Shown piece by piece: positions 4,222-4,950 of a stretch of DNA of 64,000 nt. A program made the position numbers and the translations under genes. The notes under the pieces are model-generated. The model worked only from the letters and a program-made list of their open reading frames with translations. It searched no databases and had not been told where the DNA came from. Origin of the DNA: Stylophora pistillata (Eukaryota); the NCBI RefSeq assembly GCF_002571385.2, contig NW_019217796.1, positions 248,001-312,000 on the forward strand. The letters are read 5' to 3'. Each line of letters begins with the position of its first letter. Position 1 is the stretch's first letter.

Positions 4222-4950
4222 TATGTGATTCTAGATTCGGAGACGTCGGAACCCGAAGATATTATCACCATCAAAGTGCAAGTAGGAGAACAATTACTTT
4301 ATAGATTGTTTCGATATACGAACTTAAACGTTCGCTTTCATAATGCCGCATGGATGTCTTCAAAGTTATGGCAAAAGTTGTTACCTAGTATAAACGTACG
4401 CACGTTTGTCTCGGCATTCTAGGGAATCCATGACTTTGTGTCGCTTTCTAAATTGTGGATACGCTGTTGTCCCAGTACCGACAGCATGTCTGTACACCTC
4501 TTACGCATTGTAATGTTTTTTCTGTCTTTAGAGGAAAAGATTGTAGAATGGAGTATTCCTACTGTACTCTTGTTAAAATTAATACATGAAGGATTTTTGT
4601 ACGCTTTAGAAGTACTAGAGGATCAATTTATTTCTTAGATCTTCAAGAAGGACTCCAAATAACTTACGCCACGGGTAACGCGACTAAGCTGGAAGAACTT
4701 ACTAAGGAAGACATCTTTGAAATAGCGCAGTTGATTGGGTTTTCAAAGTTTAAGAAAGTATCGGCTAGATTAAATGTCACCGAAGACGAACTACGTTGTA
4801 TTAAACGCGATCTCGAATTGTACGATTATGCGGCAGATAAATAAATAACAGTGTTGTCTTGTATCAAGCGTCATTGCATCATGCCACTGTCTTCGAAACT
4901 CCTTTACGCGCACTATTCCTTACTCTCCTTTCTTTGCCGGAGAATATAAA
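4222..4950 (+). pseudogene. Polinton accessory ORF with death-domain-like C-terminal part
   Basis: 4683-4950 reads TKLEELTKEDIFEIAQLIGFSKFKKVSARLNVTEDELRCIKRDLELYDYAADK*ITVLSCIK. Confidence 0.4.

Follow-up and report, generated by a model that had tools for sequence, protein, structure and literature searches.

A conserved, probably spliced death-domain-like last exon in a Maverick/polintovirus-like element of the coral Stylophora pistillata

Decoys of the death fold are already known from viruses, the pyrin-only proteins of the poxviruses being one example. Viral transcription units built on one first exon, with alternative splicing by which a zinc-binding region is kept or removed, are familiar from adenovirus E1A/E4 and from polyomavirus small t/large T. 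PMC7823800 describes the vFLIPs MC159 and MC160 as two tandem complete death effector domains (DEDs), and PMC8502044 reports Oncoid, Bcl2, IAP and GasderminX as accessory genes of adintoviruses. Here, we analyse a window of 64,000 nucleotides (nt) from the coral Stylophora pistillata (NCBI RefSeq assembly GCF_002571385.2, contig NW_019217796.1, positions 248,001 to 312,000 of the forward strand; G000:C13:248001-312000 in our numbering), in which a decayed Maverick/polintovirus-like element contains a short death-domain-like exon, designated A4. Coordinates are those of the window and features lie on the forward (+) strand unless stated otherwise. The exon is outside both the Pfam family Death (PF00531) and the vFLIPs. 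We understand it as a conserved polintovirus last exon, likely spliced and likely derived from death-domain helices 1-3, whose product would cap host death-domain assemblies. Taken in all its parts, this reading is held tentatively, its prospects falling a little short of even.

The death-like exon as a coding unit

A4 spans 4639..4844, with 67 codons after a phase-1 acceptor, a natural stop at 4842-4844 and an RNA joint to 4637. Its frame had been noticed in the original prediction, made from the letters of the sequence, and is present as quoted there: frame 3 reads ...LTKEDIFEIAQLIGFSKFKKVSARLNVTEDELRCIKRDLELYDYAADK*ITVLSCIK, the stop TAA is at 4842-4844, and stop-to-stop calling of open reading frames (ORFs) gives 4590-4844. 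The accompanying statement that the ORF track had missed it holds for a track based on start codons, because this frame contains no Met in the window copy, but not for stop-to-stop calling, where the ORF is listed. A protein search of the genome (398 Mb, Stylophora pistillata) yielded 29 matches to the peptide, which is a lower bound and includes some duplicates (the flanks of L031 and L032 are 93% alike). Related loci were also sought in viral and metagenome contigs, where 204 and 265 pattern matches gave 0 confirmed. As a separate observation, the beginning of the exon is internally repeated, though imperfectly (QEGLQIxYAxG / KEDIFEIAQLIG; 4641-4736); the repeat is clearer in P0014 and P0015 and may represent a duplicated helix 1.

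The position of the stop is a shared property of the family. In 25 of the 29 copies the frame ends behind a K or R, at codon 57/58 or, in a longer subfamily, at codon 68, and the more distant relatives, 52-81 amino acids (aa) in length, mostly have the same end point. Of 25 other copies compared with the window, 24 are 0-25% identical to it over the 12 codons that follow the stop, where further stops are frequent; the single copy that is more alike after the stop is a segmental duplicate of the window. Conservation of the stop together with the lack of conservation downstream identifies it as the natural end of the reading frame rather than as damage. The residues beyond it run into the gene at 4881..5290. 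An AATAAA is found within -6..+45 nt of the stop in 23 of the 25 copies; in the window it overlaps the stop (4840..4845) and is likely a polyadenylation signal.

Selection on the peptide was assessed from the ratio of nonsynonymous to synonymous substitution (dN/dS), calculated as pooled pairwise Nei-Gojobori values over codons 10-46 of 26 of the 29 copies, the pairs being non-independent (L054, L057 and L058 were excluded for an N, a gap and a late anchor, respectively). The ratio was 0.27 in frame, as compared to 1.20 and 1.67 when the frame is shifted, and it was 0.38 for the same codon range in the opposite-strand mirror frame. No stop interrupts 16 of the 29 copies between codon 10 and the shared stop. 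Purifying selection, taken together with the existence of open copies, implies that A4 once served the element as functional coding sequence and is no chance reading.

A shared first exon and its candidate last exons

Upstream of A4, a shared first coding exon with a basic N-terminus and an acidic/proline-rich middle occupies 3324..3809 (ORFs 3324-3749 and 3668-3988). Other copies have it as one continuous ORF, but in the window a stop (3747-3749) interrupts it and the frame changes ahead of the donor; the window copy, being decayed, probably makes no spliced product, and the expressed copies differ from the window copy. Near its start, at 3369..3392, the exon contains a basic-x-PY motif of the pattern K/R-x-x-PY, which we take to resemble a proline-tyrosine nuclear localisation signal (PY-NLS); the pattern was found in 10 element copies among the 29 loci scanned, 2 further matches being unrelated. 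An EEGEI motif at 3785..3799, present in 16 of the 18 copies holding the donor region, fits the ARS2-binding pattern [ED][ED]GE[ILV] as given in PMC9402713 and PMC10767929. That EEGEI closes the shared first exon raises the possibility of a viral mimic of nuclear RNA-sorting factors.

The exon ends at 3809 with a conserved phase-1 splice donor (3807..3813; GT at 3810-3811). All 18 copies that hold the site have AG before and GT after the boundary, and in 17 of them an A comes next; for comparison, GGT makes up 21% of the Gly codons in six element ORFs. At the other end of the intron, the A4 acceptor (between 4638 and 4639) consists of AG and a pyrimidine tract in 27 of the 29 copies, always in phase 1. 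Two further acceptors share the phase of the donor, so that the acceptors of the exons beginning at 4235, 4532 and 4639 all match it. The first of these defines the candidate last exon A2 (4235..4422; acceptor 4233-4234; own stop 4420-4422), which corresponds to the ORF near 4222 and is found in 19 of the 29 copies with variable length. The second defines the candidate last exon A3 (4532..4638; acceptor 4530-4531), whose stop TAG doubles as the next acceptor and which occurs in 9 of the 29 copies; no family was found for it. The two extra in-phase acceptors suggest that several alternative last exons share a single first exon. A4 had been proposed to be the frameshifted C-terminus of the ORF near 4222, which it is not: that ORF stops at 4420-4422, and the death-like piece has an acceptor of its own. 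By eye, A2 and A3 could pass for further half death domains, a notion abandoned on comparison with the host death domains and with A4 (hhalign probability below 4, and below 1 for A2 against death domains; no Pfam match).

If the intron were kept, the reading would continue into a Cys/His zinc-finger-like region (3810..4220) that is broken in the window and unbroken in L106/L107 and P0028. No Pfam or PDB family was found for it, and a likeness to GRF zinc fingers, seen by eye, was dropped for want of Pfam or PDB support. Public automatic gene models (P0002-P0006) link the zinc-finger region to the death-like exon through other, copy-specific junctions, none of them using the conserved donor. 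In three copies (L055, L056 and L058) the A4 acceptor lies 18 codons further in, directly before helix 1 and without any Met, and in diverged relatives the alignment reaches upstream past the Met codon (one from 4644; also P0037 and P0040-42). The most diverged copy, L059, has four pieces of the alternative-exon type.

Evidence from RNA was sought in eight coral runs (X1, X2, X21, X24, X3, X5, X7 and X9, with X3 and X9 from the same study). A 467-nt contig of the polyA run X9 (X9/23) places 145 nt on 3411-3561 of the first exon and then joins 30 nt at 4637. In the genomic copies L034/L039, 288 nt separate the 3561-equivalent from the donor, so that a spliced molecule would need ~461 nt; without splicing, the two anchors are 717-1079 nt apart in main-family copies and 605-608 nt apart in L055/L056. 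The contig therefore fits the spliced form only. First-exon and A4 parts are joined in none of 18 genomic copies (introns of 549-830 nt). The contig enters at 4637, two bases before the exon, as would be expected with a donor exon that ends in AG; two contigs from X3 start exactly at 4637, and the loose end of a polyA contig from X3 shows the same stop. A second joint in the RNA (4296-4570) was rejected as splicing since it equals a deletion form that exists in genomic copies. The absence of cover on 4838-4954 in four polyA runs was given no weight, since the expressed copies differ from the window there. Judged from splice-site conservation across copies and from the fitting contig, A4 is very probably spliced to the shared first exon. 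The conserved donor with its row of in-phase acceptors indicates, moreover, that polintovirus accessory genes can be spliced.

Kinship with death domains and competing explanations

The relationship of A4 to death domains is evident mainly from profile comparison. Aligned with hhalign to 30 host death domains from this genome, in a one-to-one profile comparison as distinct from a whole-library search, the A4 profile gave a probability of 94 and a score of 40.3 over 35 columns. Controls scored 10.7 when reversed and at most 18.4 and 34.0 on shuffling of columns and of seven-column blocks (200 each). The match covers positions 12-53 of the 97-position host profile, that is, helices 1-3. The AlphaFold2 model (predicted local distance difference test, pLDDT, of 82) has three helices (residues 22-32, 34-44 and 48-66; 4704..4838), of which the stretch 4704-4814 aligns with death-domain helices 1-3; a fourth helix is predicted in the 67-aa longer subfamily. 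Among the named neighbours in the ESM atlas, 28 of 30 are Death-bearing clusters; the best neighbour (0.91) has Death in 13% of its members, and the result counts as a lead by the tool's own calibration. The exon of L059 (P0012) matches Pfam Death at E 0.047, the only one of 18 aligned copies to do so, and its top PDB sequence match is the PIDD death domain (E 0.042, aligned to death-domain residues 3-48). A full HMMER scan returned 15 hits, namely 11 family members, the repeat protein P0043, two other repeat proteins and one helix-turn-helix (HTH) protein; P0043, the best outside match of the profile, has weak Death and Death_EDAR scores itself.

Two observations adjoin these searches. L059 holds a second death-like piece (L059:1734-1829, minus strand; G000:C214) that lies upstream of the homologous exon at a distance of two exons' length; its start is broken. 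It carries the canonical W-x-x-L-G-R-x-L-G, a Death match at E 0.0023, and hhalign probabilities of 93 against host death domains and 55 against A4. Furthermore, the 57-aa peptide P0009 shares its 90% cluster with a 578-aa RpoD-like bacterial sigma factor (P0025), evidently an artefact of database clustering.

We conclude that A4 probably descends from a death domain, and almost certainly does not constitute a complete death fold. Capture of the module from the host is plausible. The host genome contains at least 150 death-domain exons at Pfam level, and genome searches for a donor gene with P0012 and P0015 matched element copies only (25 and 26). The pattern described in the original prediction, a death-domain helix pattern with the tryptophans replaced, is borne out for helices 1-3 and for the first core Trp, which is Phe in A4; the second core Trp column (position 62 of the host profile) is never reached. 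The PF00531 check gave a divided result, with the Pfam cut-off not attained and kinship of moderate strength indicated by hhalign over helices 1-3.

A number of results weigh against the interpretation of A4 as a spliced piece of a death domain. The window peptide lacks both core Trp residues, the one replaced and the other past its end; no Pfam family was found for it, and all Death scores are below the PF00531 cut-off of 22.6 bits, the best relatives reaching 14.5 and 18.4 bits. The search of the predicted structure suggested by the original prediction gave no significant match of any family: Foldseek with the three-helix model found no match at E<=0.001 in PDB and BFVD. VIA-align gave a best Z of 4.4 with no death domain among the top 50 rows, and homeodomain/HTH bundles at Z 3.4-3.8. 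The HTH protein P0049 matches the profile at E 1e-3. On the side of the gene structure, the joint in the RNA comes from a single contig, whose shorter side has 30 nt at 80% likeness, and belongs to a weak class of joint. No joints were seen in X1, X2, X21 and X24, which have few reads (14 and 7 raw reads only), or in X5 or X7, and use of the acceptors at 4235 and 4532 was not seen in the runs examined. Finally, the 10 codons from the acceptor to the Met have a dN/dS of 0.79 and are not clearly constrained.

Some of these results would suit a reading that keeps the spliced structure but takes the helices for part of a nuclear viral regulator, as an HTH/homeodomain-like or oligomerising module; the likeness to death domains would then be convergence of short amphipathic helices, or ancestry without death-domain function. 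The homeodomain rows of VIA-align and the P0049 match point that way, as do weak Pfam HTH matches of P0038 and of two of 18 members (L057 and L059, E 0.11 and 0.24, under the cut-off) and the nuclear-type motifs of exon 1. The top PDB profile match, 7bqb NF6 (E 0.002-0.005), which we set aside as presumably a designed protein with idealised helices, could be counted on the same side. Against this, none of the VIA-align Z values rises above background, most copies have a net acidic helix 3 and a net acidic peptide, poor for DNA reading, and both the predominance of Death clusters among the atlas neighbours and the canonical W motif in the second piece of L059 lead back to death domains. The regulator module is therefore considered somewhat unlikely. 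A premature stop in a full, vFLIP-like death domain, frameshift-fused to the ORF near 4222, as the original prediction had it, is a different matter. The helix 1-3 pattern is real and ITVLSCIK is superficially like helix 4, but the stop is common to most copies with unconserved sequence behind it, and the read-through peptide (P0001, with X at the stop) belongs to no Pfam family. Moreover, the ORF near 4222 has its own stop in the window, L057 and L059, and a frame open through helices 4-6 is found in none of the 29 copies and 15 profile matches. A death domain of about 80-90 residues has six helices, as compared to the three here, or four in one subfamily. We regard the broken full domain as extremely improbable.

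The Met codon opens up another possibility, that of a stand-alone 57-residue protein translated from a strong Kozak context behind a spliced leader, a tiny inhibitor akin to death-domain-only proteins and possibly N-myristoylated (Met-Gly-Asn). The Met, equivalent to the window codon at 4671, is present in 24 of the 29 copies (absent in the window and L055-L058), nearly always as (G/T)CC-ATG-G; the dN/dS is 0.15 for codons 1-9, well below that of the 10 codons before, and gene callers list 57-aa proteins. Yet L055, L056 and L057 are stop-free without such a Met, donor and acceptor are in frame so that exon 1 would read straight through, and the upstream helix-like pattern is kept in relatives. 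The free peptide thus appears quite unlikely.

The best reading of the sequence, accordingly qualified, is a truncated death-domain mimic on a Maverick/polintovirus protein that is probably nuclear. In death-domain stacks, helices 2-3 provide the type Ib and IIIa surfaces, whereas helices 4-6 provide type Ia in part, IIa and IIb. A helix 1-3 peptide could dock on a host stack without recruiting the next layer, as a one-sided mimic; because the surfaces of helices 4-6 are missing, it could cap the growing stack. Given that gene structure and death-domain descent are both true, such a capping-decoy action would be fairly likely. The basic-x-PY and EEGEI motifs of the first exon would direct the product to the nucleus, which makes nuclear death-domain complexes likelier targets than receptor tails; a receptor-proximal decoy in TLR/TNF signalling, as originally envisaged, fits poorly with these motifs. 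The gene would be of an early-regulatory type, in which a single donor serves several alternative last exons: keeping the intron would give the zinc-finger protein, and the acceptors at 4235, 4532 and 4639 would give three other tails. The proposal in its widest form comprises a spliced early gene with a nuclear ARS2-motif exon and swappable tails, a half death domain capping stacks as a novel type of viral inhibitor of the death fold and the first in Mavericks, and a spliced layer missed by ORF calling. In that entirety we deem it unlikely.

The surrounding element and comparison with known systems

The original prediction had placed the ORF inside a viral element, and this is supported at moderate strength. 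The decayed Maverick/polintovirus-like element extends over 2240..8078, its right end cut off after a gene that we take to be capsid-like (no Pfam match to it). The bounds come from BLASTN alignment with other genomic copies (2238/2295-8078); bases 2240-8078 are repeated at many other genomic places, and most ORFs of the window copy are in pieces, as befits a decayed copy. A retroviral-type integrase with a C-terminal chromodomain, also in pieces, is found at 5277..6192 (Pfam rve E 1.4e-4 and Chromo E 0.0032, both below cut-off); in copy L105, rve exceeds the cut-off (E 4.9e-14), which identifies the integrase of the element as retroviral-type. Copies L107/L095 have further ORFs with Pox_A32 (ATPase, E 0.01) and Peptidase_C48 (E 0.08), both under cut-off, and a PLA2-like domain over it (E 3.7e-7). 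No long inverted repeat is present within 1-12000, where the element copy is truncated. From its sequence matches, the gene set fits a Maverick/polintovirus (adintovirus).

Downstream of A4, the next, separate element gene (4881..5290) is aromatic-rich and broken by stops; it has about 135 aa in intact copies and no Pfam family. A basic core-protein-like ORF (MGKRRR...QRGG) lies between the death-like exon and this gene in many copies (L041, L033, L057) and is missing from the window, L042 and L048. To the left, the element has two conserved ORFs that read leftward and match no Pfam family (2200-2584 and 2735-3030, minus strand), separated from the first exon by 4-5 tandem repeats of 21 nt (3092-3229); other copies have the repeats in different counts, and they may be a promoter or origin element. 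A segmental duplication relates 1-8078 and 50618-57258 to G000:C13:326000-339000 at 92-97% identity including the flanks, another partial left end of the element is at 56497-57258, and a host exon for a fibrinogen C-terminal domain is at 17477-17872 (Pfam E 3.9e-37).

A literature search (full text, title and abstract start; mostly without subscription papers) found no paper on a Maverick death domain. Neither a death-domain gene nor splicing is mentioned in the main text of PMC8502044 as searched, nor 'death' in one supplement of it. The coral polintovirus survey PMC11131425 has no 'intron', 'splic' or 'death' in its main text and no 'death' in one small supplement; the figures and other supplements of both papers could bear on novelty. 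ORF-based surveys, of which PMC11131425 appears from its main text to be one, would miss or mis-join spliced genes, as the gene models P0002-P0006 appear to do. Coral death-domain repertoires are very large. Being conserved and transcribed, the half-death-domain exon would represent a small candidate antagonist of host death domains.

As regards known systems, A4 shares with the death domain PF00531 (e.g., PIDD and the host exons) the succession of helix 1, Gly, helix 2, loop and helix 3 over 35-40 aligned columns, and differs from it in stopping with helix 3 (one subfamily adds a short fourth one), in having no helices 5-6 and in scoring under the Pfam cut-off. With the accessory genes of adintoviruses it has in common the virus group and a proposed cell-death/regulatory role, and the Oncoids, as described in PMC8502044, also combine short linear motifs with Cys pairs; the motif here is EEGEI. 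The likeness to adenovirus and polyomavirus early units is one of layout; in the element, the candidate last exons are several and separate, and a stop of its own closes each of them. The analogy to vFLIPs drawn by the original prediction did not hold at the level of the domain, A4 being a single three-helix piece without a DED family match. In common with vFLIPs and pyrin-only proteins, the virus carries a death-fold module without effector part; in distinction from them, they being complete DEDs or pyrin domains (PYDs), unspliced and from large DNA viruses, the module here would be a half, of death-domain type, provided as a spliced last exon and carried by a polintovirus.
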